Shown one piece after another: positions 1 to 34,600 of a stretch of DNA of 35,697 bases (its first letter is position 1; every line of letters starts with the position of its first letter). A program made the position numbers and the translations under genes. A model generated the notes under the pieces. The model saw only the letters and a program-made list of their open reading frames with translations, had not been told where the DNA came from and did no database searches. The DNA lies in NCBI GenBank assembly GCA_003990765.1, contig RBNJ01000243.1, forward strand, positions 1-35,697. Reading direction: 5' to 3'. The stretch comes from Jimgerdemannia flammicorona (taxonomy: Eukaryota).

Positions 1-1877
1 TGCCCTTTATTACTTCTGTCTATAATTCTAATAATACAATGTCATCCAAACTCTTAACCAATGCCCCATGGGCCCAACCCTCCCCCCTCGACCTCCCCCT
101 GCCTAAGCACAACCCAACCACCCACTACCTGAACCCTCTCACCACTCTTCCAGGAGATACACTGTACCAAACCCCTGTGATTCCTCCCACCCAGCCCCCA
201 CCCTCACTACTAGCCATTCAAAATGTCCAATAACAATCATTCTCAATGGGCCACCTTGTCCCCAACCCCAACCTGCTATCCCTCCTCAAATATATGAACT
301 CAATGCTCAGCCAACCCAATCTACATGGCCAGAGCCCAACCAAGGGTCAGCCATTTGTCCCCAACCCCACCCACCAGTCTCTGGCAAAGCTCTCCCCATC
401 TCCCCCCTTCCCCTTCCTCCAAGGCCTACAGCCCTAACTGGTCCATGATATGTCTCCAAAAACCCTCCAATACCTCGCACTCACCAAGCCAATGTTCAGG
501 CATTTGTACCACTCCTCCCTCCTGACCAACATTGAAACATTCCTCACACTTGAATACTCTACCATCCACCAAGTGTCCAGACCAAAAGTTCAACATCACA
601 TTCCACTGTAGGACTCACCACTACACCACTCAGAACTTGGGGGGCAACCACTGCCTCACTCATTTGCTCCAAAGCCAGAGTCCATTCCAATCCCACTCCT
701 TACCAATTCCAACCTGCTGCCAGGCTTTAGGCCACAGATCTCCACCCAAGCCCTGTAGACACTCCAAACCCTTGCCAAGCTGAAAATTCTCCACCAGAAC
801 ACCACCCAGTAGAAGCCTGTCTCACCACCACATCCATGATCTCCAATCCTCCTCAGCTTCATCACCATGCCACCAAAGTCCAATTTTCTTAGTGCCATCC
901 ACCACCCCCCACCAGAAGCCGGTAAACTACATCCTCCTGCTCCCATCCATGGTCACCATTGCAAGCAGGTCACCAGAGTCACCACAAGGGGAATACCGAA
1001 CCTCCCACAACCTCTGCATGAGTGGCATCTACTCCCAGCCTCTTAGCTCACTCACCCTCTGCAATCACCAAGCTCTCAAGTAGTGAAGCCACTTAGTGAA
1101 GTCAACTAAGCCCAGCCCACCTCTTTCCAAGAGCAGTGTGAGCACCTCCTAACCCACCTGGCTTCGCCACCCTCTCTAGATATGACCTCACCATCTTCAA
1201 CAGCCCCCTGACCACCCAAGTTGGGAAATCCAAATGATATTCTACATACCATAGCTTCGGCATCCAATATATATTTAGCACTATCACCCTTCTGACTAGG
1301 GACATATACCAACCTCTCCATCACAGTAGAACATTTCCCCACTCCAGAAGTTGTCAGTTCCACCATGCACAGGGAAGAAGAGATCTGAACACTGAGAAGT
1401 AGATCTCCAAGTAACACACTGGTTTGCCAGCTGGCACTACTGTCCCAATTACATTGCCACCATCAATTCCAGCACCCAGTACCAGAGTCTCACATTTGTG
1501 CCAGTTTAGTTTAGCACCAGAATCCCTCTCATACCATTCCACAGACCTCTGTAACTCCCCCACATCCATCAAAGAGCCCAGCCCAACCACTATATTATCA
1601 GCAAAGGCCCCCACCTTCCAATTAATCCCTAAAATGTCCAAACCCCCAATCTGATGCCAAATTCTGTCCAGTAGAGGCTCCAAGGAGAGGGCATACAATA
1701 TGGGTGATAAGGGGTCCCCTTGTGGCACTTCATGCCCTAGGGGAAAGGTCACCTCTCTATGGCCATTGATGACCAATGCTGCCTAACTGTCCTCCAAGAG
1801 ACCAATCAACAACCCTTGGAACCCTGGGGGGATACCAATCTGTTTCAGTACTCCCTCCAGCCAGATCCTCTGAACTC
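1..1877 (-). mobile_element. 5'-truncated, degenerate non-LTR retrotransposon (L1/Tx1-like LINE): 3' part of ORF2 (RT and C-terminus)
   Basis: The minus strand reads VQRIWLEGVLKQIGIP...VPQGDPLSPILYALSLEPL...KVGAFADNIVVG...SGAKLNWHKCE...YLEIY (RT motifs; FADD appears as FADN). It starts abruptly at ~1877, just after where KAYD would lie. Near position 1 it resembles the 3' UTR of the LINE at 2489-8378 (gtaataaagggca vs gtaataaatggta), so the poly(A) end probably lies just outside the window. Many stop codons, few CpG. Confidence 0.9.
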
Positions 1878-2455
1878 TAAAAGATATTTTAGAAACTTCT
1901 TAAATTTGAAGTGATAGATCTCATTTTTAAAAACCATCTCTTTTAAGTAGATACTGTCTTTGGGATTGAGAATAAAGGAGTGGTAAAAGGAGAAAATATG
2001 AGCAGATAGATAGATAAAATCTTGCTATTCAGAATACTTACTATTTATATCTACAATATACTCCAAAGTTAAAAAATATATCTTTGACTATAATTTCTAG
2101 TAAGCTTCTATTTCTTAGCATTTTCTATTTTGTTGTGTAATTTTCATAATCTGGTGCTGAAATTTCTCCATCATATTTATCATTACATTCTGATAAGGAT
2201 ATTTCTTTATCTAATGTTATCTAAAAAATAGTAAAATATATTAAGCTCAAGCTGTATTGATTGTAATGTTTCAGAATTACTATAATAACTACATTTTTAT
2301 ACCCTTCTCCTCAATGATTTAGAAGAATTTTGAATTATATTACCTAGGAATTTTTTTTAGTTACAATAGTAAAAAACTAATGTATTAAATAATATCAAAA
2401 TTAATATTCACTTTGATATTACTCATAGACAGACTTGATTTTATTTTTGTTATTT
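1878..2455 (-). pseudogene. Heavily mutated AT-rich intronless ORF of probable bacterial (MRE-like) origin; function unknown
   Basis: One minus frame reads ...KIKSVYE*YQSEY*F(TGA)YYLIH*FFTIVTKKNS*VI*FKILLNH(TGA)GEGYKNVVIIVILKHY...EISLSECNDKYDGEISAPDYENYTTK... It is continuous if TAA/TAG are read as mutated CAA/CAG and TGA as Trp. It lies immediately downstream of the HAD-like ORF and is cut by the left LINE. The start codon is uncertain. Confidence 0.45.
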
Positions 2456-2473
2456 TATTTATCACTTTTTAAT

Positions 2474-2488
2474 AATGAGAAGAACACA
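2474..2488 (+). repeat. Left target-site duplication of the full-length LINE
   Basis: aatgagaagaacaca (2474-2488) vs aataagaagaataca (8379-8393): 13/15 identical and both mismatches are transitions. Joining the flanks restores a reading frame (...GLLFLVNFIC[V/I]LLIIKK). Confidence 0.75.
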
Positions 2489-5400
2489 TGTACTCTCTCT
2501 AGTAATATTTAGGTTATACAACTTTTGGAAAGTACTTATAATATTATTTTTGGAGAAAAGAAACTAGCAATATAGTGACTGACAGACAATCTGAGATATA
2601 GACTGAACAGGGTGACCCAAGTATGTTTGACTGATAGCATGTAGGGAGGGGCTCTGGTCTGGAGGAGAGTATGAGAGGTCTGCTGGTGAGAGGACATGGA
2701 AGAGAAGAGAGTAGTAGTAGAGGACAGGAGTCAGGAAGGACAAGCTTTACAGAGACAGTGAAGGAGAGACAGTAGGTATCTGGGCTGGAGAGCTGGCTGA
2801 GGAAAGGCAAGAAGATGGTGAAGACAGTAGAGCATAGGGGAGTAGCCTTTAGTAGAGGGAGCAGTAGAGCTAGAGGTATAGTGGCTAGGGTGAGTATGAT
2901 GGCTGATGGCAATAAGACTGTCAATCTGGAAAAAAATCCAGATGTGACTGCTGATGATAGGGCTGAGAGGATGGAGTGTAGATGGTAGAGAGATTTAGCA
3001 GATAGTGTGACAGACCTGGTAGTGGCCCCATTACTCAAGAAGTCAATCTTGGAGTTTATGGTTACTTTGTATTTCTAGAACTTAGCAGTAATAGTGAAAA
3101 TAGTACTGGGGCTAATTGCTAAGCAGGTGGCTAGAGCAGCATCAGTGAAGTTTCTGAAGAGATTGAAGGGAGTGGAGGTGGGCTTTGAGGAGGCTGGGTC
3201 TTTGAAGGATGTGCTGAAGACTAAACTGACTGTTAGAGAGATGTGTGTTTTAATGATATACTGCTTGAGATGGGACCCCAGGGTGGTGCAGCTATTGATA
3301 AAAGGAGTGCCCATAGTGACCATAGTGGAGTTGAGGAGGAGAGTCAAGGAAGTTATGGCTGAGTATGGGGAGGTAGTGGATGTTAAATTTAGGGTCTGGA
3401 AAGGGACCTCATTTGGGACTGGAGATATTGATGTCAGGATTCAGTTAGCAGAGAAAAAGGCTACTGGGAAGGCAAGGAACTGACCTTTGATGATAGTCTA
3501 GAGAGTAATCTTGTACAAGGTGATGAGAGTGAAGGAGAGTAAGGAGAAGGAAGAGAACTTGTTAGAAGTACTGGAAGAGCTGAGTGATACAGTAGAGTGG
3601 TAGGTGAAGGCTTGAAAGACTTATATAGAGTTAACACATTTGGAGATAGTAGATGAGAAGTAGATTTGAATAGACAAGGGGTAGTGGGAATGGGCCCAGA
3701 GATACAAGAGGCAGAGGGAGCTGCTGGCTAACCTGGAGAGTAAAACAAAGAAGGATGCAGATGGAATTGAGGAGGCAGGGGGAGCCAAAGCAAGCATCTG
3801 GGTCAGTGAGAGTAGAGAGAATGGAGGGAAGAGACCAGGAGAGGACAGAGAGGTGACTGGTAATAACCTATATACAGATGATATGTTTGAAGTCTGAGAG
3901 GAGGCCTGAGAGGACTCCCCTACTCTTACTCCTCTTATCAGATAAGGTCCAGCTTCTAGGAGCAGAGTGGCAGAGAATGTGTCTATGTAGGGGGTCCAGT
4001 GAGTACAATTTGAAGTTCCTGAGGTGGTAAAAGGGGGACAAGTAGTAGCAGTTGATAAGGAGAAACTGGTGGATGTCTCAGAGGAGTGAGATGAGTCTGT
4101 AAGTATAGGAACTGATACCACAATGCTGGATGGAGAGAGGCCAGCAACTTTAGAGAGAAAGGAGGTGGGGAACCTACTTTGGGTATGCAGGATAATGAAT
4201 AACTTAGTGGTTGAAAAGTTGGAGGAAGTGGACCTTAGAGTGATAAGTGATAAGTATTGGGCATGGATTCTGTAAGGTAATGGAGTAATGGTGGCATTGA
4301 AGGCAGAAATCCTTATAGTGTACTTGGAGGAGGAAGAATATGAAGTGGATAAGGAGAGGGAGACAGAGCTGGCAGTTGTTGCTGGTGAGCAGGCCACCTA
4401 CTGTTGGGTTAAGTATCATAGATTGCAGCTCTGATAGGAGGCCTGCCTAGAGTACTATGATGATTTTGAGGAAAAGGTAAATGGAGAGATAAATGAGCTA
4501 TTGGCTGGATTGGAGGCTAAGAGGGCTGAAGAGGAAGAGGGGTCTGCTGAACATAATCTGGATATGGTACAGAAAGTAATAAGTATAAAGCAGTAGAGGA
4601 TAAACTTGATAATATATAATATTTCCTTATGAATAGTATAACTAACATTTTTTCTTTGAATATAAATAGGTTATAGAGCTCTTCTTGATATAGGAACATT
4701 TTTACTTAGCTAAAGAGATTGGAGACTGATCTTTTCCTTTTACAGGATATCAAATGTGAGAATGATTTGGATAGGCTGGAATGGATGAAGAAATAGAGAG
4801 GTGAGATAGTTTGAAAGAGTAAGATTGGAATTCTAGTTTAGAGAGGCAGAGGGAAAATATATGATATGAGGAGCTGGAGAGATAGATTGGTCTAAGGAGA
4901 GTAGATACAAACAGGTTGGGAGCCAGTTACAGTAGATTTCTACTACTGCCCTACTGTATGGGGTAAGCATATAGATTGGGTAAAGGGTCTCTAAGAGAGT
5001 GGAGCCCTTATAGAGGCTAGAATGGATATGCTTGGTGGGGACTTTAATATAGTCAGAGATGTACTGGTGGATAGAACCAATGGAGGACAGAGAGCTGAGG
5101 GTAGGAGTGGAGGGCATAGTAATATAGAAGAAAGTAGAAAGGCTAAGTGCTCTAGTGAATGCTAGCAGGGAGTTTTGGTGAGATAGGAGGGTGTACATAC
5201 ATTGGGCAGGTGGCCTGGGGATAAGGATTGACTAGATTCTAACAGTAAGCTGCTGGGGTTTGGATGTTTAGAAGTTGCTGGAGACAAAGTGGTGTCTATG
5301 GTTGAATAATTAGGAGCTGCTAGGATAGAGACATTTTGGGGAGAGTGGGGACAGGCCTGGACATTGGTGCCTCAATTCCTCTTTATTAGATGATAGAGTA

Positions 5401-8378
5401 TTGTGAGATAAGTGGGCTGAAGACATTCAACAGAAGGTGGAGAACTGGAGGCAAGAAGGTGCCCCAGTTGGTATTAGGTATATGAGGATGAAAGAGACTG
5501 CTAGAGTCTACTAGAGTGAGGCTGGCAAGGAGGCTGGAAGACAGAGAAAGTAAAGAGTGAGATGAGCTTCTGCTAGACTGGCTAGACTCTTGAAAGATTG
5601 GGCAGAGCTAGTAACACTAGAGGGGGGAGAGGATTGGAGATTAATGTGAGTAAAAATGGAGGTTGGGGAATTATAACAGATGTTGTAGGAAGAGGAGAAG
5701 GTATAGGTGTAGAGTTTGGTGGCATGGTTACATTAGTAGGGTTTGGAGGAAGGGAAAAGATCTTCTAAGTATCTCAAGGGCCCTTCAGATAAGAAGAATG
5801 AAGTAGAGGTGGGAGAGGGTACTAGACTCTAATGGTTTACTAGTGTATGATATATAAGACATTATTGGATCATTAAAGGAGTAATGGATTGGTTTATAGA
5901 GTAAGGAGGAGGGTGGGGCTGATACTGCCACTATTAACTAGATATTGGAGGATTGGCACTCCTTATAGGCAGAAGGGCTGAGTGGCTTGATGATACCAGT
6001 TCAAGAGGAGAAGATCTTCTAGGTTCTTGCCACAACTATGCTGGACACAGTATCTGGAGAAGATGGTCTGCCTTGAAACTTCTGGAGGAAGATAGTAGGA
6101 GTCCCTGGAGTACTGGGAGAGCTGATGGCATTATGTGATTTGATACTATAGTCAGAGAGATGAATGGGAGAGCAGGATCTGAGGCTGGTGACACTGCTCT
6201 ATAAGAATAAGAGAAGGAGAGAGGACTGGAAGAACTAGTAGTCAATCATACTGCTAGATATAGATAGAAAGTTGGTTACTAAGGTATTAGTTGTAAGGCT
6301 ACAGAAGGTGACCTGATAAGTCTTGGGTATTGAACAGAGGGGTTTTATAAAGGCTGGCTCATTAGGGATAGCATAGCTTGGATATATAGAGTTATTGAAG
6401 GGGTATGAGCTTGTGGACTAGATGGGTGACTGGTCTTCCTAGATCAGAAGAAGGCATATGACCAAGTGAGGCAAGTCTGGTTGGTGAAGGTATTGGATAG
6501 GATTGGAGTACCTCACCAGTTTCAGTTGGCAATAGTCAGTCTACTGAAAGAGAGTCAGGCTGTACTCATGTATAATGGGCATAGAGGGGTGATATTTCCT
6601 CTGAGTAGAAATGTGCCCCAGGGGGACCCACTGTTCCCCATTCTGTATACTCTTTCTCTAGAGCCTTTGATGGATAGAATTAGACAGAAGATAGTTAGGC
6701 TCTCAATTTTTAGAATTGGGTAAAAAGTTAGTACCTTTGCAGATGATATAGTGATCAGCCCAAGATTAGTTGCTGATGTTGAGGAGTTCAAGGAGACAGT
6801 AAAGTGGTATGAGGTACACTCTGGGGCTAAACTCAATTGGCATAAGTGTGAAACAATAGTGTTAGGCAATAGTCTAGTGAGAGGAGATATCATTGGAACA
6901 ATTGTCTCTACTGGAGAGGCAGTGTAGTACTTGGGTATCTATTTATCAGTATATGGGTCAGTCCTATAAAGACTTTGGTGGAAATAGAGAATTGCAATCT
7001 GGGGGTAGACCTTGCAGAGTTGGGGAGGTTGCCACTTGTCTTTGACAGGATGTGTTTTGATTTTGAATATCTACTGATTGCTAAAGCTATAGTATTTGAC
7101 CTATCACCTGGACTTCTCAGCCTAGGTGATAAAGAGACTGATGAAACTGGCCAAGAGATAGATCTGGGCTAGAAGAAGAAGTCAGATCAGCTGAGAGGTC
7201 TTGTCCTTATCAGTAGTGAGAGAAGGTCTTGGACTAGTTGACTTTCCGAAGAGACTGTACTACCTGAGAGCATGATGGTTAAAGAGAGTAGTAGAGTTGA
7301 GAGAGAGTGGCTGGATCTCTCTGATGCAAAAGGTCTGAGAGATGAGGTTCTTACTAAGAGGCTCTATAGAAGATCTACTATCCTTAGTTAGGTTTTGAAA
7401 CACTAGACATATGAGGTACAAAGGCTTCTGGTGAGAAGTGACAGATAGGGTGTACTATATTGGAATATACTGGCAGAGAAATAAAGAGGAGGTGCCTTGG
7501 GACTCAGTAATGTGAAGATGAGACTGAATATTGTTAGTGGGTATTCTCCTAATTGAGTTTGACATTAGTGATGAGATCAAGTGCTAGAGAGGACCAGGCC
7601 AGGATCTGTAGTCTGGTGAATGATAGTTGGCAGATATCAGAGAGAAGTGGAACTGATATAAGATCTGGGTCTGAAGTATTGAGGTGAGGAGATAGCTGCT
7701 GCTGAAGTACTAGATGATCTGATGGTATATGCTATAGAGAAATATTATGCTCAACTTCTACTTGAGTTACCTTATTAAGGGGAGATACTTCAACTGTAAG
7801 GAGTATCACAATATAGGGCAGAAAGGGGGATGTATACAGATACCAGAATATTGGCTAGGAGAGTATGAGATACTTAGTGACTTTTAGCTGACTATTGGAA
7901 ATCAATTAGGTATAGTGTGTAGAGGGGATAGTGAGCAGGGTCAGTGGGAGAATTTGAGAGATAGATTGGTGAGGGGGGTAAGAAAGGAGTAGCTTACTTT
8001 AGATTGGATTTTGGTAATTTGGATAGGGCTAGCAAATTACTGGTTATTTGTTTTTAAGGATAGAAGGAGACTGAGTTTGGGGGTGCAGCTATTGAGATAG
8101 CAAGGGCTTATAGAAGACATTATGATAGGCTGGTGACTTGGTTGGGGTTTGCAGAGTGGTCAGAGATATTACTTAGTAGAGAAAATCTGTGAGTAGAGTA
8201 GGGAGAGAATTGAGATAGTGGGTGAGAAAGTGATCTTTATTTATGAAAGTGTGAGGGGGGGCTCTCCTATGGGGATTGGATAGTAGGAGGTAATACTGTA
8301 ACTATATTAATAGACTGGTAATAAATGGTAAAGTCTAAGTAACTATAAAAAAAAAATAAAAATAAAAAAATAAAAAAA
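2489..8378 (+). mobile_element. Full-length (~5.9 kb) degenerate L1/Tx1-like LINE: ORF1 (RRM-like), ORF2 (APE endonuclease + RT), poly(A) tail
   Basis: ORF1-like segment LLIKGVP...VMAEYGEVVDVKFRVWKGTSFGTGDIDVRIQL (3094-3483). ORF2 from ~4629 has APE motifs IFSLNIN, DLFLLQD, LGGDFNIV and RID. RT motifs: SGEDGLP, LVTLLYKNK..DWKN**SI (=NWRPI), EQRGF, LDQKKAYDQV, PQGDPLFP, FADD, SGAKLNWHKCE, YLGI. A-rich tail at 8347-8380 and a flanking TSD. Purine-rich sense strand, full of stops. Confidence 0.93.
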
Positions 8379-8393
8379 AATAAGAAGAATACA
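8379..8393 (+). repeat. Right target-site duplication of the full-length LINE
   Basis: aataagaagaataca directly after the poly(A) tail; matches 2474-2488 at 13/15. Confidence 0.75.
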
Positions 8394-9348
8394 AATAAAG
8401 TTCACCAGAAAAAGCAGACCATAAATAGTATCAGCTTTGTCTCAATTTTGTCTTCTTACTTACTAATTGTACTGAGCAATCTTGACTTACTTTTGGATTT
8501 TCAACTTTTCTTATTTTTGATAATATTCAGTAGTAGCTTTTATAAAGTTTTCATTTTTAAGATCTTCTACAATGGTAGTTTTAACATGATAGATATTAGA
8601 GGCTTTGATACATCTGTTGGGAGTATAATCAGATAGAATCAAATATTTATTAAGGAAAAATTTTCTTATTTTTTCTATTATAACTAAATTATTATTAATA
8701 AAAATATTAAAGTCTGGGTTCTTCTCTTTCAATCATACTCAATGAGTGAGATGTCAATTATCTCTATCTTTAGCAGGAGGTTTGGTTTTGATAAATAATA
8801 AACAGATATTAGGAAAGATCTCTAACATTTTCTGAAAAGTTTTTGTTTTTCTAAGATTAACTTATAGAATTACCAGCTGAATCCTTATATCTTCCTTTCA
8901 GAGTGACAGTTAAAATAATTAATTCCTCAATTAATTAACTATCCTGGAATACTAATAACAATTCCTTTTCAATAAAAAGAAAAGACAAACAATTATAAAA
9001 AGTAGGTTGATCACTATAATGTTACTTATTATTTTTAGGGGGTTTTTTTTTTAATTTTTTTCTTTCTTTCCAATTATTAAGATTAATTCTTTCCTTTTCA
9101 TTAGAATCATCAGGATCAATGTAGGAAAATTCTCAACAATTAGTGTTTATTTTAGTATTAGGAGAAAATTAATAACCTTCATTATTATAAAGTATAATTT
9201 CTGCTTTATTCAAAATCTTTTAAAGTATTCCGCGAAATTTATACAAACATTCATCCCAATCGCAAATAATTTTTAACTTTCTCCCTTTGAGTTTGACTTG
9301 CTCTTTGATAAAAGTGTAAAGGGAATCAATTTTGTTTTGATTATTCAC
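8379..9348 (-). pseudogene. HAD-superfamily phosphatase/nucleotidase-like pseudogene with C-terminal hydrophobic segment, probably from a Mollicutes-related endobacterium; last codons continue at 2473-2459
   Basis: From GTG 9348: (M)NNQNKIDSLYTFIKEQVKLKGRKLKIICDWDECL (HAD motif I, DxD). After frameshifts: ...LIEELIILTVT...H(TGA)V(TGA)LKEKNPDFNIFINNN (likely decayed motif IV DIFIDDN)...YLILSDY...NIYHVKTTI-EDLKNENF...TIYGLLFLVNFICILLI. Intronless, AT-rich, K/N/I-rich. The MRE attribution is from my recollection of similar MRE proteins and is not verified by search. Confidence 0.6.
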
Positions 9349-9362
9349 TTTAATAATTTTAT

Positions 9363-9500
9363 TTATTGATTGTGTGGCTTTGGACAAGTGATATCTTTGA
9401 ACAAAGGGGCGAATATTGTGATAAAGGTATTCTTGCTGCTCATATTTCATAGGAAGAGGCACCAGCACTGGAAATGATAATGTCTTAATTTTTTCTATGC
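9363..9500 (-). mobile_element. C-terminal remnant of a DNA-transposon transposase (possibly Sola-type)
   Basis: IEKIKTLSFPVLVPLPMKYEQQEYLYHNIRPFV, then after a frameshift FKDITCPKPHNQ* (stop 9363-9365). This resembles the xxQxYLYxxIRPFV...DITCPKP C-terminus I recall from fungal DNA-transposon proteins. Confidence 0.5.
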
Positions 9501-9600
9501 GCTAAACGAACGTTTGTCAAGAAACGATCCTAGTAGTAGTGGCGAACGTATCTAAGATTTACGAGACCTCACGAAGTGACTTCTCTGGTTCTCGGGCGTG

Positions 9601-9693
9601 ATAATGCTCTTAAGAATTTACACACTAAGGGGTTCTCAACCCTGTTGTAGAAAATCACGCAATCTCACGACATTCTTAAGTAGAGCACGATAT
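9601..9693. repeat. Imperfect inverted repeat; candidate DNA-transposon terminus
   Basis: tgctc...ttaagaat (9605-9617) is an inverted, gapped match to attcttaag-tag-agcacg (9672-9689), which is followed by ATAT (9690-9693). On the minus strand this reads ATAT|CGTGCTCTACTTAAG, which looks like a TIR plus 4-bp target. Confidence 0.35.
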
Positions 9694-9764
9694 TTTATTT
9701 TCATACATGCAAACATATCCCTAATTTAAGCACATTATCATGAAAAAAGTACCCAACCCACTTT

Positions 9765-11807
9765 TTAGAACCACTTTTTCCATGGACTATCGCTGGCCCT
9801 AATTGGAGAGGAAAAGCCGGATTTCATGGATGATTCACCAAGATTTGCCTCGGACCTCTTCATATCCTTCACCGAAAGTCTTGTCTTCAGGAAGACGCGC
9901 TTGAAGACCAGAATTGAATGTATCGTTTTCGAGAGGGAACCCATATCTTCAAGGGAGCGAGGCAAAATATCATCCGCCCATTCCCACATCACGAAGACCC
10001 CCTTTCCTACACAGCACATCACCTGCATGAAGAGGTGGCAACCTGCAAGTGTAGTCGGTATTTAGAACGATTTTCTTTAGAAAAAAAAACCCCCCGAGAA
10101 TGAGTCACAATACAAACCTATCACATGCGAGGCCACTACCTTCAGCTTGCGGCACTGCTGTAGATCCACGCCGGAGACCGTCATTGCCACCCTCTTCAGA
10201 TGATTCTTCATCCCCTTGGCAATCTTGGAGAGATCACTCCTGAGTTTGCTCTCGCTGCAGCCTTGAGTCCCACCGGACACTTCCACGAGTCCGGAGTGAG
10301 GACTCTCGATGAAGACGGAGGATTGATCGGAGAACACACCATCCCACAAATTATGCTCTAAGTTCCGGCTTTTGATGAGGTCGCAGTTTCCCTTCTCGCA
10401 CCTAGAGAATTGAAGTCAGATAATTCACTCTTTTGTTGTCTTTGAAGTTTTTCATAGCCATTCCGAAATTTAATTACCAGAAACTCTCAAGATCAGCAAC
10501 ATCTTGGAAGATCCAATCAAATAATGGCTGCAAGTACTTCACTGTGAGTTGCCGCTCGTCCATTGGCCTTGACAGTTCGCCTCGTCCTTCGAGGCCAGAG
10601 CAGCTGCAACGAAAAGAGTTAGTTACTAATCAGCTGTAATTCATAAGTGACCAACAAATACGCACAAGTGATCGTATAGCCGCTTAACGAGCCTCTCCGT
10701 TGCTGTCGTTGACTTCAAGGCATCGATATAACTTCTAAGCTCTTGCAAGGTTTCCTTTTTTTATTGAAAATAATCAGATCTTAGATTTTGAACCGGTACA
10801 TAATGGTGAAATGCATATGCCTACCCCCTCAACCAGCGGGACATTATCAACGTTTGGGAGAGCTAGAATATCTTTAAGGTTTTGGAGTTCTTCAGCTGTC
10901 AACATCTCCTTCACCTTCGTCTGCATAATGGATGGTTCTTGAAGTGTCGTGCGGGAAGAGATGCGAACAACTCCAAGAGCAGCCAGCCTGAGAGAAGAAA
11001 AGAGAATGAGAATGCAGAATCATTTGTGGTGCATAGCAGGTGAAGTAAATATAAACAACTCTTTATCTAAATCGCCTTTGCTTCTTTTGCCCACTTCAAG
11101 ACGCTTCGGAGCTTTGTGACAAATGATGGCTCGTCCTATAACGGTTAAAACGCGAGCTCAGAAAATTTTAATGTAATCAACGAACAATAACTGACAATAC
11201 ACGTACTTCAATTTCGATTTCTTCACTGTCCGCAGCATCGTCATAAGCGGTACCTGATTCTCCCTCGAGTTCCTCGTCAAATAGATCACCGGGTTCAAGA
11301 ACACTTCCTTCTTCCTCTCCGTCATCAGATCTGGCGCCGCAGTGCCGCTTTTTAAAATCGTCAGCAACGCTCTCCATCAAAGACAACATGGTGCGCTTTC
11401 CTTTATGAAGGACACGAATCTACCAAATCTCTGAATCCACCAAGCTGTTCCGTGGTTGAGTTGGCGGAGTTGGCGAAAACTGCAGCAAAGAAATCTCGAC
11501 GCTTGCTTGTCTGCGATATCCGTTGGAATGACAGTTTACTCGAGGCATTCGCACGCAATGATATTTAAAAAGCATAACTTGGTTGAAAATTTACCATCAC
11601 CCATTCTTTCAAACGTCTGGCGTATTTCCTGACATATGAATACTTATTCGATATCGAATCTGAGGTCGAAATCTTGACAAGGGACCCGCAGTAAGAGCCC
11701 AGTATTTCTTCTGCTTTGAAATACGGAGGCTGTTCTTTGATGAAGGTGTGAAAATGGCTCCATTCCCTCATGGGGTGGACTGTAAAGAACACGTTGATGG
11801 CTGCCAT
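9765..11807 (-). pseudogene. Multi-exon PD-(D/E)xK restriction-endonuclease-like gene (Crinkler/CR-REase-like), frameshifted
   Basis: About 8 GT-AG exons: MAAINVFFTVHPMREWSHF...; an acidic linker; LAALGVVRIS...; ERQLTVKYLQPLFDWIFQDVADLESFW|CEKG...SRNLEHNLWDGVFS...SGLVEVSGG...KLRSDLSKIAKGMKNHL...VVASHVIG|CHLFMQVM...DSPWKKWF*. The D-G...E-x-S spacing fits the PD-(D/E)xK fold. Frame breaks near 11410 and 11070. Confidence 0.55.
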
Positions 11808-12669
11808 TTCGCGCGTTAGAAATCTTGATGGCGTGCAGGTTTAACCTCGCATTTACTTTCTTCCGCTGGATGTTTATAGAGCCACTGATCGTCCGTTAGC
11901 TTGGGAACGTCATTATGATTGGTTTTTGCATCGATCGTGATTGGTTCTTGGAATGTGACGCCTGCTTTTTTTGTGACACCCATTTTGACCCTTGAAAAGC
12001 GTCCAAACGACGACAAAATTCTTCCCTAGGCCATAGAACTCGTTCTAAGGCTGAGGGACTCGTCCGGGGGACGTTTACCTGCGAGCCATGGCTGTCCCTA
12101 CGCTGATAAACTCGTTCAAAGCTTATGGACTTGTCCGGGCCAAGCCAAGGTCGCAGGAAGGAAGAATCAACGTTATGTTTTCGCATTCCTCCTCCCCGTT
12201 GCGATTGTTTGCGTCTTTTTTGTCAGGTCCAACTGACGACTGCTTTTTTGTGTAGACAACGGTATCAGCACCGAGGGAACCGCGCTCTGGCCGAGTCTCT
12301 GAAGCAGAACATGAACCCTCACCGGGCCGAATCTCTACAGTATGTCAGATTTGAAGATTGTTTGTAGCTGCGTGACGAGATCCTGACGCATGCTCGCTCA
12401 TCCATCAGGGAATATTATCGGTAACGAGGGAGCCCGTACCCTGACTGAGTCTCAAAAGCAGAGTTTGGTTCTCATCAAGCTGAAATTCTAAGTAGGTCGG
12501 AACCGAGTAAACCACTTTTTTTTTTTTTGGGTTACATGAGATTCAATTGACAGGCTGTGTGTGCTTGCTCATATAGGTATACTTTGATGGAAGGTCGGGA
12601 ATCGGGAATGTAACACGTCGACAGGATACGAGCATAGAGTCGGAATTAGAGGAATAAAGATGTATATTC

Positions 12670-12862
12670 AGGAAGTCCATCTCTGGGTGCAATTCGCTGG
12701 CGGATCTGAATCTGGATATGTTGTACCAAGCTTACACGCATGGCTTTGAGGCATCCACCTTCCATCAACGGTGCGATGATCGAGGCCTCGAATTCCGCCC
12801 TCGCTGGGGCGCCAACCTTCATGGTCAGTGATTACGAGGTGTTTGCCGTTTCGGCGAAGTGA
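12670..12862 (+). pseudogene. TLDc-domain gene remnant with internal deletion
   Basis: DMLYQAYTHGFEASTFHQRCDDRG (TLDc N-terminal LLY..S.HGF...FH..CD..G motif) is joined out of frame at ~12788 to NSALAGAPTFMVSDYEVFAVSAK* (TLDc C-terminal F.V..YEVF motif). The middle of the domain is missing. Confidence 0.7.
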
Positions 12863-12962
12863 GGTGACAATGCGAGGAGGTGACATCGAATATTTATATG
12901 CATACAATTCGCAACCATGATGAAATGCGAAGGTTTATTCATTCGTGAGGTTAAACTCAGAA

Positions 12963-12982
12963 ATATATATATATATATATAT
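12963..12982. repeat. (AT)n microsatellite
   Basis: About 10 AT units, directly visible. Confidence 0.9.
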
Positions 12983-13877
12983 AAGATAAAACATCCACCA
13001 GTGTCTATTCTTCTGAATCACCCATCCTTGTCATCCCGATGACCAGTTTTTCGCTGATCGACTTTCAAGGAAATGTTCGAGGTATTGGGTGAAACGATGT
13101 CTAGGGTAGATGTATGGCTAAACATCCAAGACGTGGCCTCGATCGTCACCTCATACGTTATCCGATGCAATATCGATTGCTGCGGGGATTAAGACGCGAC
13201 TGCGCCAAACGACGACTCACACGAATTGGACCATTGACTATTATACCATATTTAGCCTAACATGACGATAAAAAATATATATACTACGAACCAGGACAGA
13301 CCGGGGCCATACCGTCCGAAGAAATATTAAACGGAGTCACTCGGGCAGATCCATTTGGACAAAGGAGTCTGTTTGCGTTGTCTTCCAACTGATTTGTCGC
13401 CAAAAGTCCAAACTCTGCATCCAAATGGCAAACGCTGTTCATACCCTTCACAGTTCCTCTACAGGCTGCAGGAGATATGAAACAAGTAACCTATAGCGTG
13501 AACGGATGATTCACAAGCATAATGTCATGTGTAAGATAAGTGATCTAAGAAGTTCTTTTTTGATGAACAGCGATAGCAATCGTCACGTTCCCGATGGGGA
13601 ATACAAGGTGTGCGAGCTGTTACAGTATCCTCTCGTTAGAAGGACTCGTCGTCCATAATGAGGCAATAAAGTTCTCATTAAATATTCGCAGGCAGGCATA
13701 CTATGCGAACCGACCTCTGCTTGGCGCTCCTGGCATTTTCATATACATAGGCTGATGTGTAAGAATAATAAATAACACCGCACCCATCCCTCTACAAAAA
13801 AATTGGAGCGTGCTTATTTGTGCGCAAAATTTAGCGGTTTATAATCGCTTGTCGACTACATGAGGGAATATAAGAAA

Positions 13878-13887
13878 CCCCCCCCCC

Positions 13888-13922
<35 letters not shown>
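13878..13922 (+). repeat. C-run followed by poly(A) run
   Basis: About C11 then about A34, directly visible. Confidence 0.9.
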
Positions 13923-13924
<2 letters not shown>

Positions 13925-14062
13925 GAGAGATTGAAAAGATATATTTTTTTACCTTGTTTACTCTAACTATCTTATGTGGCGAGCAAAGCAACGGCAAAAA
14001 TAACTCTTCAAGCCTGATGCTCGAGTGATGTCAAATGTTCACTTTGTCTGGTTTTGTTGCAG

Positions 14063-14881
14063 CACGCCCCATATATCAACAACTTCACGTTCCCTACCAC
14101 CCGACGCTCTTCAACATTGGAGCAATCAGAAGAAATCAATACGTCATTGAGATTGAACGTGAGCAAGTCGTCGAACTTGTCATCAACAGTAAGTACCCGA
14201 GTGTATCTGCAATATTTGGATGTCAACGATCTAATGTTCATTCGCTAATGTCATCTCTGTTACTGTGCTTATCGGCATGCTTCACGCATCTTCCAGACGC
14301 TGACATGGGAGAGCATCCGTTCCATTTCGTATGTATCAACGCGCATACGGACTCACAGATCTCGGCTTCCATATTTTACGCCATTTTACAACTCGCTACC
14401 CGAACCCTTGACCGTGATCCCCAGCACGGCCACACCTTCTACGTTCTCAGGTTTGGCAACGGCACCTACAATCCACATAGGGATGCGAAACACCTGGACG
14501 CTATCAACCCGATTCGTAGGGACACTTCTACCATCCCGGCGGGTGGGTGGACGGTGATCAGGTAAGTTATGACAAAATTTGGGAAGTTTGCCAAAAGAAT
14601 TTTTTTTGGGGGACGAAATAGTACAAGGCCGATAATCCGGGCGTATGGGCCTTCATTGCCACATCGAGGTAACCTTTTCACGCAACGGCTCCAAATTAGG
14701 CTTTATGTATTTTAAAACGCTATATTCTCCTTTAAAATATTCCCAGTGGCATATGGAAGTCGGGCTTCTTGTTCAGTTCGTCGAACTCCCTTCCAAAATC
14801 TACGATCTGAAGTTGCCTCAGTCTGCGCTTGACCTGTGCAAATTTGATTACATGCATGCACGCAAGAAAGCTCTGGACTAG
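14063..14881 (+). pseudogene. 3' fragment of a multicopper oxidase (laccase-like, cupredoxin domain 3), frameshifted
   Basis: Spliced exons give YINNFTF../..PYHPTLF...EQVVELVINN|ADMGEHPFHF|HGHTFYVL...NPIRRDTSTIPAGGWTVIR|..ADNPGVW-LHCHIE|WHMEVGLLVQFVELP...ALD*. L3 and L4 copper motifs are present, with Leu at the T1 axial position. Apparent small deletions near 14090, 14620 and 14650. I found no L1/L2 (HWHG, WYHSH) exons upstream. Confidence 0.85.
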
Positions 14882-15079
14882 AAAAAGGGGAGAACATTGA
14901 AAATACAAGATAGATGTAATAAGACATACTAATAATAAATCAATTAAATTACCAAATGACGTCATATTGCCGGTGGGGTGGCTTGTGGGCACGGGATGAC
15001 ATCAGACGAACTGTCATTGACTAGCCTCGAACTACTTGCTACCGATTGATACTTCCCCGTCAGAAGAACCACCTGCAGC

Positions 15080-23284: not shown

Positions 23285-24050
23285 GTGTGAGAATGGATAA
23301 GGATGGAAGTGCTCTTGTGGTAGGAACAGGACCATGGAAGTTTGGGACATTCGAAATCTAGTGTGTAATAGTATAATTGTATGTTCATAATCGTACAGCG
23401 TTCTCTGCATGCTATACTTGGCATTCCTTTGTAAATTATCCAGGCATTAATCTACATGTATCATCTCACGATGATAAATAAATAAATCTGCTTCGTACGA
23501 CTGTTTAGAGCCATATCGTTATCAGGGCTTCACTAGTTGATCTATCGACTCGCCGAGCTGTTTTGGGAGGAAGGGGATGTGAATGTAAATATGTGCGATG
23601 CTGTACATGGAATGAAATATATCTCTATCCGCGGCGCTCTCACGTCTCGACGGCCTAAAGATAAATTCTTTTGATGACAAGGCAAAGCAAATAACATACC
23701 GCCAGGGGCCCTCAGGATTGACGCCAAACTCGCAGGATTCCGGGTCGAGAGCAGGGAGGGTGAATAAAAACCTCGCATCGGAGATGGTTGCAAGGAACCC
23801 ACTATTGATTACCTCCCTGGTTTCTTGCGATGTTATGCACTTGGCATAATGTGGCTTGTGTCACAAAAAGCGTGCAAGAAATAATTATGTTATGGTATTT
23901 GTTATTGAAATTGAATAAAAAATGGTCCAAAAAGTATCTAGAGGGTTTCCGAAAATTTAAAGAAGTGTCGTTGTCTGTGTGCATTCTCTGGCACAACAAA
24001 TCGGCCAAAACACCATCCCCTTCCAATCATAAGCGTGCAGCACGCATTCA

Positions 24051-31670: not shown

Positions 31671-34600
31671 TCAGACTTGTTGCTTTGTGCGGGTGTTCTG
31701 ACTGATTACCGGCGCCTGTTGGCAGAGTGGCTCCGCCTTATCGTACTTGCCCTGGCTTTTGTAGAGATTTTTCAGAGTTGTCACTGTCTGCGGGTGCTCT
31801 GGTCCCAACGTCTTCTCCCTAATTACCAGTACACGTTTGTAGAGCGGCGCCGCCTCACCGTACTTGCCCTGGCGCCCGTAGACCCAAGCCAGCTTATTCA
31901 GAGTTGTTGCTATGTGCGGGTGCTCTGATCCAAACGCCTTCTCTCTAATTATCAGTGCCCGTTGGTACAGCGGTTCCGCCTCGTCGTACCTCCCTTGGCT
32001 ATGGTAGAGCCCAGCCAGAGTGCACAGGGTTATTGCTATGTTCGGGTGATTTGGTTCCAACGTCTTCTCCTTGATCGCCAGCGCCCGTTTGAGGAGCGGC
32101 TCCGCCTTGTAGTACTTGTTTTGTGCGGAATAGAGCGCAGCCAGGTTGTTCAGGGATGTTGCTGTTGCTGTGTTTGGGTACTCTGGTCTCAACACCTCCT
32201 CACGGATCACCAGCGCCCGTTCGTACAGCTGCTCCGCCTTGTCGTACTTGTGTTGTTTGTAATAGACCACAGCCAAATTGTTCAGAGATAGCGCCGTCTC
32301 TGGGAGATCTGATCCCAAAGTCTTCTCCTTGATGGCCAGCGCTCGTTCGAACAGCGGCTCCGCCGTATCGTACTTGTTTTGTGTGTAGTAGAGCGCAGCC
32401 AGATTGTTCAACGATGTTGTCGTGTGTTGGTGCTCTGGCCCAAACACTTTCTCCATGATCCTCAGCGTTCGTTCGAGCAGTGGCCCCGCCTTATCATATT
32501 GGTATTGTGTGCGATAGAGCATTGCCAATTTGTTCAGAGATGCTGCCGTTTCTAGGTGTTCTGATCCCAACGCCTTCTCCACGATCGTCAGCGCCCGTTC
32601 GAACAACTGTTCCGCCTTATCGTACTTTTTTTGTGTGCAATAAATCGTAGCCAACGTGGTCAGAGGTGATGCCATATCTGAGTGCTCTAATCCCACCTCC
32701 TGGATCGCCAGCGCCCGTACGAATAGTGGCTCCGCCTTATCGTACTTGTTTTGTGTGTAATAGAGCGCAGCCAGATTGTTCAGCGATGTTGTCGTGTGTG
32801 TGTGCTCTGGTCCAAACACTTTCTCCATGATCCTCAGCGTTCGTTCGAGCAGTGGCCCCGCCTTATCATATTGGTATTGTGTGCGATAGAGCATTGCCAA
32901 TTTGTTCAGAGATGCTGCCGTTTCTAGGTGTTCTGATCCCAACGCCTTCTCCACGATCGCCAGCGCCCGTTCGAACAACTGTTCCGCCTTATCGTGCTTT
33001 TTTTGTGTGCAATAAATCGTAGCCAACGTGGCCAGAGGTGATGCCATATCTGAGTGCTCTAATCCCACCTTCTCCTGGATCGCCAGCGCCCGTACGAACA
33101 GCGGCTCCGCCTTATCGTACTTGTTTTGTGTGTAATAGAGCGCAGCCAGATTGTTCAGCGATGTTGTCGTGTGTGTGTGCTCTGGTCCAAACACTTTCTC
33201 CATGATCCTCAGCGTTCGTTCGAGCAGTGGCCCCGGATTATCATATTGGTATTGTGTGCGATATAGCATTGCCAATTTGTTCAGAGATGCTGCCGTTTCT
33301 AGGTGTTCTGATCCCAACGCCTTCTCCATGATCGCCAGCGCCCGTTCGAACAACTGTTCCGCCTTATCGTACTTATTTTGTGTGCAATAAATCATAGCCA
33401 ACGTGGTCAGAGGTGATGCCATATCTGAGTGCTCTAATCCCAATACCTTCTCCTGGATCGCCAGCGCCCGTACGAATAGCGGCTCCGCCTTATCGTACTT
33501 GTTTTGCGTGTAATAGAGCGCAGCCAGATTGTTCAGCGATGTTGTCGTGTGTGTGTGCTCTGGTCCAAACACTTTCTCCACGACCCCCAGCGTTCGTTCG
33601 AGCAATGGCCCCGGATCATCATATTGGTATTGTGTGCGATAGAGCATTGCCAATTTGTTCAGAGATGCTGCCGTTTCTAGGTGTTCTGATCCCAACGCCT
33701 TCTCCATGATCGCCAGCGCCCGTTCGAACAACTGTTCCGCCTTATCGTACTTGGTTTGTGTGCAATAAATCGTAGCTAACGTGGTCAGAGGTGATGCCAT
33801 ATCCGAGTGCTCTAATCCCAATACCTTCTCCTGGATCGCCAGCGCCCGTACGAATAGTGGCTCCGCCTTATCGTACTTGTTTTGCGTGTAATAGAGCGCA
33901 GCCAGATTGTTCAGCGATGTTGTCGTGTGTGTGTGCTCTGGTCCAAACACTTTCTCCATGATCCTCAGTGTTCGTTCGAGCAATGGCCCCGGATTATCAT
34001 ATTGGTATTGTGTGCGATAGAGCATTGTCAATTTGTTCAAAGATGCTGCCGTTTCTAGGTGTTCTGATCCCAACGCCTTCTCCATGATCGCCAGCGCCCG
34101 TTCGAACAACTGTTTCGCCTTATCGTACTTGTTTTGTGTGCAATAAATCGTAGCCAACGTGGTCAGAGGTGATGCCATATCTGAGTGATCTAATCCCAAT
34201 ACCTTCTCTTGGATCGCCAGCGCCCGTACGAATAGCGGCTCCGCCTTATCGTACTTGTTTTGTGTGTAACAGAGCATAGCCGACTTGATCAGAGATGATA
34301 CCGTTTTTAGGCTCTCTAATTCCAACATCTTCTCTTCAATCGCCAGCGCCCGTTCGAGCAACAACTTAACCTCTTTGCCCTGGTTGTCGTAGAGTGCAGC
34401 TAGATAGTTCAAAAATGTTGCCATGTTTAGGTGCTCCGATCTCAACACCTTCTCATAGATCGCCGGTGCTGGTTTCGCCTTGTCGCACTTACGCTCGCTT
34501 TTGCAGAACAGAGCTAGATTGTCCAGAGGTGATGTTTTTGCGTCCTTTGATCCCAATGTCATTTCACAGATCGCCAGCAATCCCGATACTAACTTAGCCA

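Follow-up and report, generated by a model that had tools for sequence, protein, structure and literature searches.

A probable piece of Mollicutes-related endobacterial DNA, split by a retrotransposon and decayed, in Jimgerdemannia flammicorona

The DNA discussed here is contig RBNJ01000243.1 of the fungus Jimgerdemannia flammicorona (assembly GCA_003990765.1), positions 1 to 35,697 of the forward strand; this whole stretch of 35,697 nucleotides is referred to as the window. Close to its left end lie two AT-rich blocks that are held apart by a long interspersed nuclear element (LINE 2) and bounded on the left by another one (LINE 1). Together the blocks form what we call fragment A, which carries a broken gene of an HAD-fold protein family and the tail of a neighboring gene with a DUF7869 domain. 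A much smaller piece of related DNA, fragment B, is found 4.5 kb further along the window. A previous interpretation made from the letters alone, the sequence-only reading, had seen in the two blocks the halves of one segment that was transferred from an endobacterium of the Mollicutes to its fungal host. Here we describe the locus and weigh this and competing explanations. The coordinates of the features are collected in Table 1.

The two AT-rich blocks have a G+C content of 23% (1878-2488) and 25% (8394-9350), and the ratio of observed to expected CpG dinucleotides (o/e) is 0.0 and 0.2. LINE 2 was excised in silico by its coordinates, which joins position 2488 to 8394. Along the joined sequence an intact relative of 346 amino acids, P0004, can be followed through the joint: its residues 174-337 run across in one frame and gapless (LFLVNFICVLLIIKKW; tblastn), and the search returns two high-scoring segment pairs with a combined E of 9e-62. 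When the broken minus-strand frame is used as protein query, with X at the stops, it retrieves P0004 (E 3e-27) and a second relative, P0005, the only two proteins at E <= 0.1 among 650 candidates. The pseudogene thus identified extends on the minus strand from 9348 to 8394 and continues from 2488 to 2441. The start of P0004 coincides with the start of the AT-rich block, where the window has GTG (9348-9346) in place of the ATG of the relatives, and at the other end P0004 finishes in a hydrophobic anchor followed by a basic tail.

A frameshift-aware alignment of the whole pseudogene with P0004 matched 321 codons, of which 157 are identical. It contains at least four frameshifts (near 9240, 9209, 8865/8860 and 2461) and at least seven stops (9171, 8513, 8489, 8465 and 8462, plus two within inserted codons), and it is intronless. 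The D-W-D of the first motif is kept (ICDWDECL, ~9267-9244). The fourth motif reads DFNIFINN versus DFDIFIDD in the relatives, and the catalytic pair of aspartates has turned into two asparagines; in total the window copy carries five D-to-N changes. The HAD gene of the window is a dead pseudogene without function.

Its codons retain a signature of another genetic code. Seven TGA codons lie in the pseudogene (9212, 9135, 8756, 8741, 8735, 8444 and 2464), six of which align with tryptophans of P0004 (2464 with W337) and the seventh with a tryptophan of P0005. Counted from the side of the tryptophans, these positions hold TGA six times, TGG once, and neither TAG nor TAA. In the soil contig L003 a relative of the gene is intact under translation table 4 (code 4), in which TGA is read as tryptophan, with ten TGA and one TGG, and at five of the window positions TGA is shared between the two. 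Over 1109 aligned columns the DNA of window and L003 is 72.8% identical. Where L003 has G or C the window has A or T at 157 of 361 sites (43.5%), while changes from A or T to G or C amount to 79 of 748 (10.6%); 58 G>A and 49 C>T are among the changes of the window relative to L003.

The element between the two halves has the features of a non-LTR (lacking long terminal repeats) retrotransposon. An RVT_1 reverse transcriptase match at ~6259-6940 in LINE 2 covers profile positions 9-203 of 205 (E 2.2e-18), and an A-rich tail is found at ~8346-8378; an endonuclease domain was not detected in the read-through frames. The element is framed by a 15-bp target-site duplication (TSD), whose left copy AATGAGAAGAACACA (2474-2488) and right copy AATAAGAAGAATACA (8379-8393) agree at 13 of 15 positions, the two mismatches being transitions. 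In LINE 1 the RVT_1 match covers profile positions 106-192 only (E 1.3e-9 to 1.7e-10) and starts about 31 codons from 1877. As the match begins only at profile position 106, LINE 1 is 5'-truncated, and the truncation coincides with the border of the AT-rich DNA (1877/1878). There is no blastn match between the two LINEs, their kinship being visible at the protein level only. Their CpG o/e is 0.06 (LINE 1) and 0.00 over 5890 nt (LINE 2), at a G+C content of 43-51%. The sense strands of both elements are C-poor and G-rich (LINE 2: 11.3% C, 31.1% G, a GC skew of about +0.5), and the dinucleotide CT occurs in LINE 2 at twice its expectation. This composition could result from a strand-specific mutation process or could be native to the elements.

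On the right, the foreign DNA continues beyond the HAD gene. In L003 the open reading frame (ORF) upstream of the HAD gene encodes a DUF7869 protein (Pfam E 2.1e-16), and tblastn finds its end in the window with 25 of 34 residues (9498-9397) and 11 of 12 residues (9401-9366) identical. In the DNA, positions 9499-9245 match L003 at 77% over 283 nt. The order of DUF7869 tail, spacer and HAD gene is the same in window and soil contig, and an apparent ORF start at 9450 is explained by a frame that continues from the DUF7869 tail into the HAD gene. At about 9500, where CpG returns, the foreign DNA comes to its end.

These results agree in large part with the architecture proposed by the sequence-only reading. 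The two AT-rich blocks are indeed halves of one unit, separated by a LINE with a reverse transcriptase domain, an A-rich tail and a 15-bp duplication, and the left edge placed at 1877/1878 is the truncation point of LINE 1. The right end had been set at 9348, which is too short in view of the match to L003 and the DUF7869 tail. Two closely packed minus-strand ORFs had been described; the span holds one HAD gene, and a neighbor exists in the form of the gene tail upstream of it. Excision does give a frame that runs through the joint, which turns out to be the C-terminal anchor of the same HAD gene. Finally, a mutation signature shared with the LINEs was suggested: the loss of CpG is common to both (o/e 0.0-0.2 versus 0.00-0.06), the strand skew is not.

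Table 1 Features of fragments A and B and of the flanking retrotransposons in the window
Feature	Coordinates	Strand	Basis
LINE 1, non-LTR retrotransposon remnant	1..1877	-	RVT_1 at ~1482-1782; 3' end at or beyond the window start
AT-rich remainder of fragment A	1878..2365	-	23% G+C, no CpG
Decayed 3' flank of HAD gene with probable remnant of the 45-nt core	2366..2440	-	transition-tolerant alignment to 13960-14130
HAD pseudogene, 3' end: end of anchor and basic tail, includes left TSD copy	2441..2488	-	P0004 residues 322-345
LINE 2, near full-length, heavily decayed non-LTR retrotransposon	2489..8378	+	RVT_1, A-rich tail, TSD
Right TSD copy	8379..8393	.	AATAAGAAGAATACA versus AATGAGAAGAACACA; with one copy removed the frame is in register with P0004
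HAD pseudogene, main body	8394..9348	-	alignment to P0004
Intergenic spacer between DUF7869 gene and HAD gene	9349..9362		
DUF7869 gene tail: last 46 codons (one frameshift) and stop	9363..9498	-	tblastn of the L003 upstream ORF
Fragment B: last 7 codons and stop of a HAD-family gene, ~30 nt, ~45-nt core	13980..14078	+	84-93% identity to L003, L009 and L010

To which family does the broken gene belong? An HMMER search with the uninterrupted C-terminal 112 residues against 1.84 billion proteins found 46 at E <= 0.001, eight of them at E <= 1e-10. Ten clusters of the family were looked up and none has a meaningful name: the labels are 'hypothetical protein' plus one HIT-family. The entries come from ENA, JGI/IMG, Logan, MetaClust and one SRC read record, none from NCBI or UniRef. 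Invariant in all 13 aligned members are D30-W31-D32, K177 and D228-D229. HAD motif I (D-x-D-x-[TV] at the end of the first strand) is present in the family as well as in the window copy; the acidic pair of HAD motif IV is present in the family and replaced by two Asn in the window. An AlphaFold2 model computed on the family alignment (pLDDT 84, pTM 0.80) shows a long C-terminal helix ending in the membrane anchor, and a large, poorly predicted insert at residues 71-112. Structural comparison of model residues 1-270 with VIA-align gives the class B acid phosphatase AphA (Z 11.6, 181 aligned residues, root-mean-square deviation 3.8), the deoxyribonucleotidase-like 3bwv (Z 10.5) and deoxyribonucleotidases (Z 9.0-9.5), with the mitochondrial 5'(3')-deoxyribonucleotidase at Z 9.5.

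On the basis of these motifs and the predicted fold, we read the family as putative membrane-anchored HAD phosphatases, in line with the HAD character assigned to the gene by the sequence-only reading. Their substrates are probably nucleotides. With AphA and the 5'(3')-deoxyribonucleotidases the family shares the predicted fold, over 155-181 aligned residues, together with the N-terminal D-x-D and a late D-D. It differs from them in giving no sequence-profile match, in the insert at 71-112, and in the C-terminal helix with its membrane anchor. Some members occur in larger arrangements: P0006 carries two HAD modules in tandem, P0011, an 863-aa protein from a 124.9-kb contig, combines two such modules with a HIT domain and a C-terminal anchor, and in P0029 the end of a DUF7869 protein is fused to the second half of an HAD protein.

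The distribution of the family points to a specific group of bacteria, the Mollicutes-related endobacteria (MRE) of fungi. A pattern scan of one genome per prokaryote species (185,579 GTDB species) produced 63 matches, of which two were confirmed, both in 'Endosymbiont DhMRE of Dentiscutata heterogama'. A hidden Markov model (HMM) search of DhMRE revealed three full paralogues (E 8e-50, 1e-39 and 5e-32) besides two short pieces; in-frame TGA occurs in every one of them. With the same kind of search one of 399 scored genomes of its class and one of 298 scored genomes of its order matched, in both cases DhMRE itself (two and three genomes of the respective samples gave no score). JGI metagenomes contributed 31 confirmed loci, and of 55 pattern matches in viral contigs none could be confirmed as a relative. 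All 33 fetched loci have a G+C content of 27-37%. Except for L009, L013 and L033, each of these loci (30 of 33) needs TGA as a sense codon for one frame to stay open over the whole match, the number of TGA per locus being 2-12; summed over the fetched loci the ratio of TGA to TGG is 148:47. On one contig of 204 kb the relative is located among genes for YchF, TatD, a pseudouridine synthase, an AP endonuclease and an integrase, which all use TGA for tryptophan.

A maximum-likelihood tree was calculated from 37 rows, namely 23 loci, L013, 12 database proteins and the window copy. Loci L009, L010, L012, L014, L022, L026-L028, L030 and L033 were omitted as partial or near-duplicate, and L034 and L036 as the same places as L002 and L001. 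In this tree the window copy is sister to L003 (support 100/99) and nested in a radiation of TGA-using copies, in which the three DhMRE paralogues fall into three different clades. Its branch is longer than that of L003 (0.91 versus 0.48). The transfer from endosymbiont to host that the sequence-only reading had postulated is hence strengthened by the relatives in DhMRE, by TGA at tryptophan positions and by the sister relationship to a code-4 copy. It had proposed a homology search against MRE genomes, with the LINE deleted and table 4 applied; in the scan of species genomes made here DhMRE was the only one confirmed, and viral relatives, which would have spoken against the transfer, were not confirmed in the viral contigs.

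Putting these observations together, we consider it probable that fragment A is a piece of an MRE chromosome, at least 1.7 kb long, that was integrated in the nuclear DNA of the fungal host and decayed there. Homology, gene order, codon signature, LINE insertion and decay can each be read directly from the sequences compared. The assembly joins fragment A to a LINE insertion with its TSD, to the truncating LINE 1 and to 26 kb of eukaryotic genes. The proposed course of events would be as follows. Fragment A (1878-2488 plus 8394-9500, minus strand) would have come from an MRE chromosome, its cargo in donor order being the 3' end of the DUF7869 gene, a complete gene for the membrane-anchored HAD-fold phosphatase, the 3' flank of this gene and further AT-rich DNA. 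Free endobacterial DNA may have been captured during the repair of a nuclear break, as for mitochondrial DNA segments in the nucleus (NUMTs) and Wolbachia inserts. Because TGA means tryptophan to the donor but not to the host, the HAD gene would have been unable to give a full-length protein in the nucleus from its arrival. Later LINE 2 inserted inside the HAD gene, leaving the 15-bp duplication, and LINE 1 truncates the fragment on the left. The region lost its CpG along with the LINEs, its G+C content drifted from ~33% to 23-25%, and the HAD gene gained its at least seven stops and at least four frameshifts and lost the catalytic Asp-Asp. In the bacterium the enzyme probably served to dephosphorylate nucleotides at the membrane.

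The left part of fragment A, 1878-2365, is likely further donor DNA, judging from its 23% G+C and the absence of CpG. Under table 4 no ORF longer than 45 aa lies wholly inside this block, and the longer ones listed extend into LINE 1 or LINE 2. Comparison of 1878-2445 with all fetched loci (six-frame tblastn and blastn) gave nothing beyond the last codons of the gene, and BLAST of the left remainder against five genomes of the DhMRE family gave short AT-rich matches only (E 1e-4 to 1e-2).

A number of observations weigh against an endobacterial origin or against the identity of the gene as described so far. The remainder at 1878-2365 is without a homologue, and the contiguity of the locus rests on the assembly. 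The closest relative, L003, is a soil contig of 1.9 kb with 44% protein and 73% DNA identity, and its assignment to an endobacterium is drawn from its code-4 reading frame. The collection scans use short peptide patterns and may miss relatives. Concerning the fold, HAD proteins head the Foldseek list, but none of its rows reaches E <= 0.001; the window pieces and P0004 matched no HAD profile of Pfam or NCBIfam and no PDB sequence, with chance-level rows only; and the ten highest-ranking VIA-align rows include a chain that is not HAD, PEX4-PEX22 (Z 10.0). One relative, L013 (349-1057), has four TGG, no TGA and a one-base frameshift (an intron at this place was considered and rejected in favor of the frameshift). 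L013 using TGG only, standard-code copies of the gene therefore exist; this copy is possibly living in, or adapted to, a standard-code genome. DUF7869 is otherwise eukaryotic (Atlas clusters with 96-100% Eukaryota) and yet present in L003. Searches of DhMRE and of four genomes of the DhMRE family did not find it, a weak negative since the search controls matched nothing. The last point is fragment B: it ends at the same nucleotide as the junctions of three code-4 contigs. Random capture does not predict such a coincidence; it would be expected if an endobacterial element, mobile or linear, had its end there.

The DUF7869 gene deserves a closer look in this context. Among 554 candidates the L003 protein has 288 relatives at E <= 1e-5, some of them in clusters of 119-285 members. 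Among those with a name are proteins from assemblies of Ambispora leptoticha (73%), Geosiphon pyriformis (63%) and Diversispora eburnea (62%). Two relatives (57% and 54%, on contigs of 124.8 kb and 27.3 kb) are labelled as proteins of a metagenome-assembled genome of 'Candidatus Moeniiplasma glomeromycotorum'. A eukaryote-type transposon gene beside a code-4 gene fits an endobacterial genome, because MRE, as far as passages of the pertinent papers describe them, have many mobile elements (PMC4916391), acquire genes of their hosts (PMC10507103), and occur as contigs inside assemblies of Glomeromycotina and of Mucoromycota (PMC10507103, PMC11423566). The same pairing also keeps alive a rival explanation, namely a unit that is mobile in both compartments.

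Most of what can be said about such a unit comes from fragment B. The last 85 nt of L003 (1800-1884), directly after the stop codon of its HAD gene, match the window at 13995-14078 on the plus strand with 87% identity. The same place is matched by L009 (840-926, 84%) and L010 (981-1023, 93%), and the last seven codons and the stop of fragment B are identical to those of L009. Within the 45-nt core a 26-mer (14037-14062) is exact in L003, L009 and L010; it occurs once in the window, with zero occurrences expected by chance. Directly after the core, all four sequences diverge. In the window the core abuts a fragment of a multicopper oxidase, comprising the C-terminal Cu-oxidase_2 domain only. 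Fragment B is not CpG-depleted. A decayed counterpart of the core is probably present in fragment A, where the alignment of 2366-2440 with 13960-14130 scores 70 versus a mean of 37 (sd 6, maximum 57) in 200 shuffles; this is weak evidence, as part of the score comes from the last codons of the gene. As a tRNA, a tmRNA or a member of an Rfam family the core was rejected, there being no match.

Some further observations concern the surroundings of fragment B. The multicopper-oxidase fragment (14063-14900, plus strand) contains intron-like gaps and an apparent frameshift near its start. Other oxidase domains or exons were not found in 9501-13979 on either strand, and the window does not contain the upstream two thirds of the gene. 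With no such exons in this interval, a simple inversion that would have separated fragments A and B has no support. Just upstream of fragment B, at 13870-13922, a run of about 10 C is followed by about 43 A, which could be a retroposon tail or an assembly artefact.

According to the strongest competing explanation, DUF7869 gene, HAD gene and core constitute a mobile element with a defined end that is found in endobacteria and fungal nuclei; fragments A and B are remnants of its insertions, and the TGA-bearing HAD gene is cargo acquired in a code-4 genome. We regard this as unlikely, while acknowledging what speaks for it: DUF7869 is a eukaryote-type family with its hundreds of close relatives (288), P0029 joins DUF7869 and HAD parts in one protein, the exact 26-mer is followed directly by divergence in all four sequences, the flank of L009 has a G+C content of 58% and is unlike endobacterial DNA, and two fragments of the unit are located 4.5 kb apart in a single window. 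Several findings argue in the other direction. Beyond the decayed core of fragment A, ~490 bp still have 23% G+C, versus 43-51% in the host LINEs under the same decay, which suggests that donor DNA continues past the supposed end. In L010 the core lies 500 bp away from the HAD gene, between stretches of unrelated sequence. No inverted copy of the core was detected in the window when both strands were searched with up to 3 mismatches allowed. With the same tolerance five genomes of the DhMRE family gave no match to the core, and its 26-mer was not found in the IMG/VR viral contigs. Moreover, the HAD gene of L003 is intact only under table 4, with its ten TGA codons, so this copy is maintained in a bacterium.

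A related version would keep the unit within the endobacteria: DUF7869 gene, HAD gene and core would form a mobile or linear MRE element with the core as its physical end. Its DNA would reach the nucleus repeatedly and be joined to host DNA at precisely this end, as in fragment B at 14078, beside the broken oxidase gene. The odds are clearly against this version too. If true, the element would carry DNA across kingdoms, between endobacterium and fungus, its end bearing a loose resemblance to a T-DNA border, and an MRE element with such an end would also explain the eukaryote-type transposon gene in code-4 genomes.

Could the HAD family instead be fungal in origin and have been passed to the endobacteria, the window copy being a host paralogue in decay, with TGA arisen from TGG by mutation? 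Passages of the literature describe transfer from fungus to MRE only (PMC10507103, PMC11423566), L013 uses TGG only, and G-to-A change is heavy in the window copy, as seen in its 58 G>A and 49 C>T relative to L003 and in its five D-to-N replacements. But the decay of TGG should affect both of its G's, and the tryptophan positions hold TGA six times and TGG once, never TAG or TAA; five of the TGAs are moreover common to window and L003. The copy is also intronless, has 23-25% G+C in a genome of 48%, and is nested within TGA-using sequences, and its neighbor gene and the spacer in between match a code-4 contig. We therefore hold this explanation to be very unlikely.

Even less credit can be given to an assembly chimera or contamination, in which an endobacterial contig was falsely joined to fungal sequence. 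The known presence of MRE contigs inside Mucoromycota assemblies, mentioned above, makes this a legitimate concern. However, a eukaryotic LINE with poly-A and a 15-bp duplication lies inside the HAD gene and a second LINE truncates the fragment; at least seven stops and at least four frameshifts are present under the donor's own code; CpG has been lost as in the neighboring LINEs; and four false joins would be required. Mitochondrial DNA (a NUMT, also under table 4) or viral DNA can for practical purposes be set aside: the blocks are AT-rich with TGA at tryptophan positions, and a language-model look-alike search for P0004 lists some phage clusters (scores of at most 0.89, leads only), but none of the 55 pattern matches in viral contigs was confirmed, and a mitochondrial origin, at which no direct search was aimed, is disfavored because relatives are found on the 649-kb chromosome of DhMRE and beside bacterial housekeeping genes.

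The setting of fragment A in the window is that of a nuclear genome. Genes at 9501-31000 have 48% G+C and a CpG o/e of 1.06. To the right of the fragment a glutaminyl-tRNA synthetase with eukaryotic N-terminal domains is encoded, interrupted by an intron-sized gap, and its best long-form matches are fungal (Modicella reniformis 58%, Sorochytrium 56%; only over-long entries were compared). The same sequence also encodes a VPS15-like helical domain and a TFIIS zinc ribbon. To judge from its gene content, the window is eukaryotic and fungal in type. In 9501-13979 no Pfam domain was found with all six frames read through. Further to the right there is a tRNA-Pro(tgg) at 23309-23405 (plus strand), which with 97 nt probably contains an intron, and at 31671-35696 (minus strand) an open frame of 1341 aa that leaves the window and contains TPR_10/TPR_12 units, about 20 in number and nearly identical to one another (Pfam E 3e-224 and 2e-196).

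The presence of endosymbiont DNA in host nuclei is by itself of a known kind. Inserts of Wolbachia are found in the chromosomes of insects and nematodes, and organelle DNA is found in nuclei as NUMTs and, for plastids, as NUPTs. Fragment A resembles these nuclear inserts in being dead donor DNA in a host chromosome that keeps the composition and gene order of the donor, decays as a pseudogene and receives later transposon insertions. It differs in its donor, an MRE of fungi, and in the use of TGA for tryptophan, owing to which the gene would never have been translatable in the nucleus; furthermore, a second fragment here ends at a conserved 45-nt core. The two LINEs correspond to insertions by target-primed reverse transcription, with poly-A, the 15-bp duplication, a reverse transcriptase domain and 5' truncation of the second copy. 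Compared with usual non-LTR insertions the mechanism is ordinary, while the sense strands are oddly poor in C (11% C, 31% G).

For the partnership of MRE and fungi, gene transfer is described in the opposite direction only, as far as passages of the literature go. The genes for MGMT and PknD/LRR proteins were transferred from host to MRE (PMC10507103). The present case involves the same partnership and shows a similar mosaic, L003 pairing a eukaryote-type DUF7869 gene with a code-4 gene, and would run the other way. The bacterial donors of Rhizophagus irregularis genes are, according to passages of PMC5982333, not known MRE, and full-text searches returned no passage that describes MRE DNA fixed in a fungal nucleus.

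If verified, the insert would mean that DNA traffic between MRE and fungi runs both ways. It would serve as a marker by which an association, past or present, could be dated in this fungal lineage, the insert being older than two LINE insertions and much decay. It would also caution against taking every 'MRE signature' in a fungal assembly for contamination. Beyond the single locus, the analysis brought to light a family of predicted membrane-anchored HAD phosphatases with three paralogues in DhMRE, which may serve nucleotide scavenging in these reduced bacteria.

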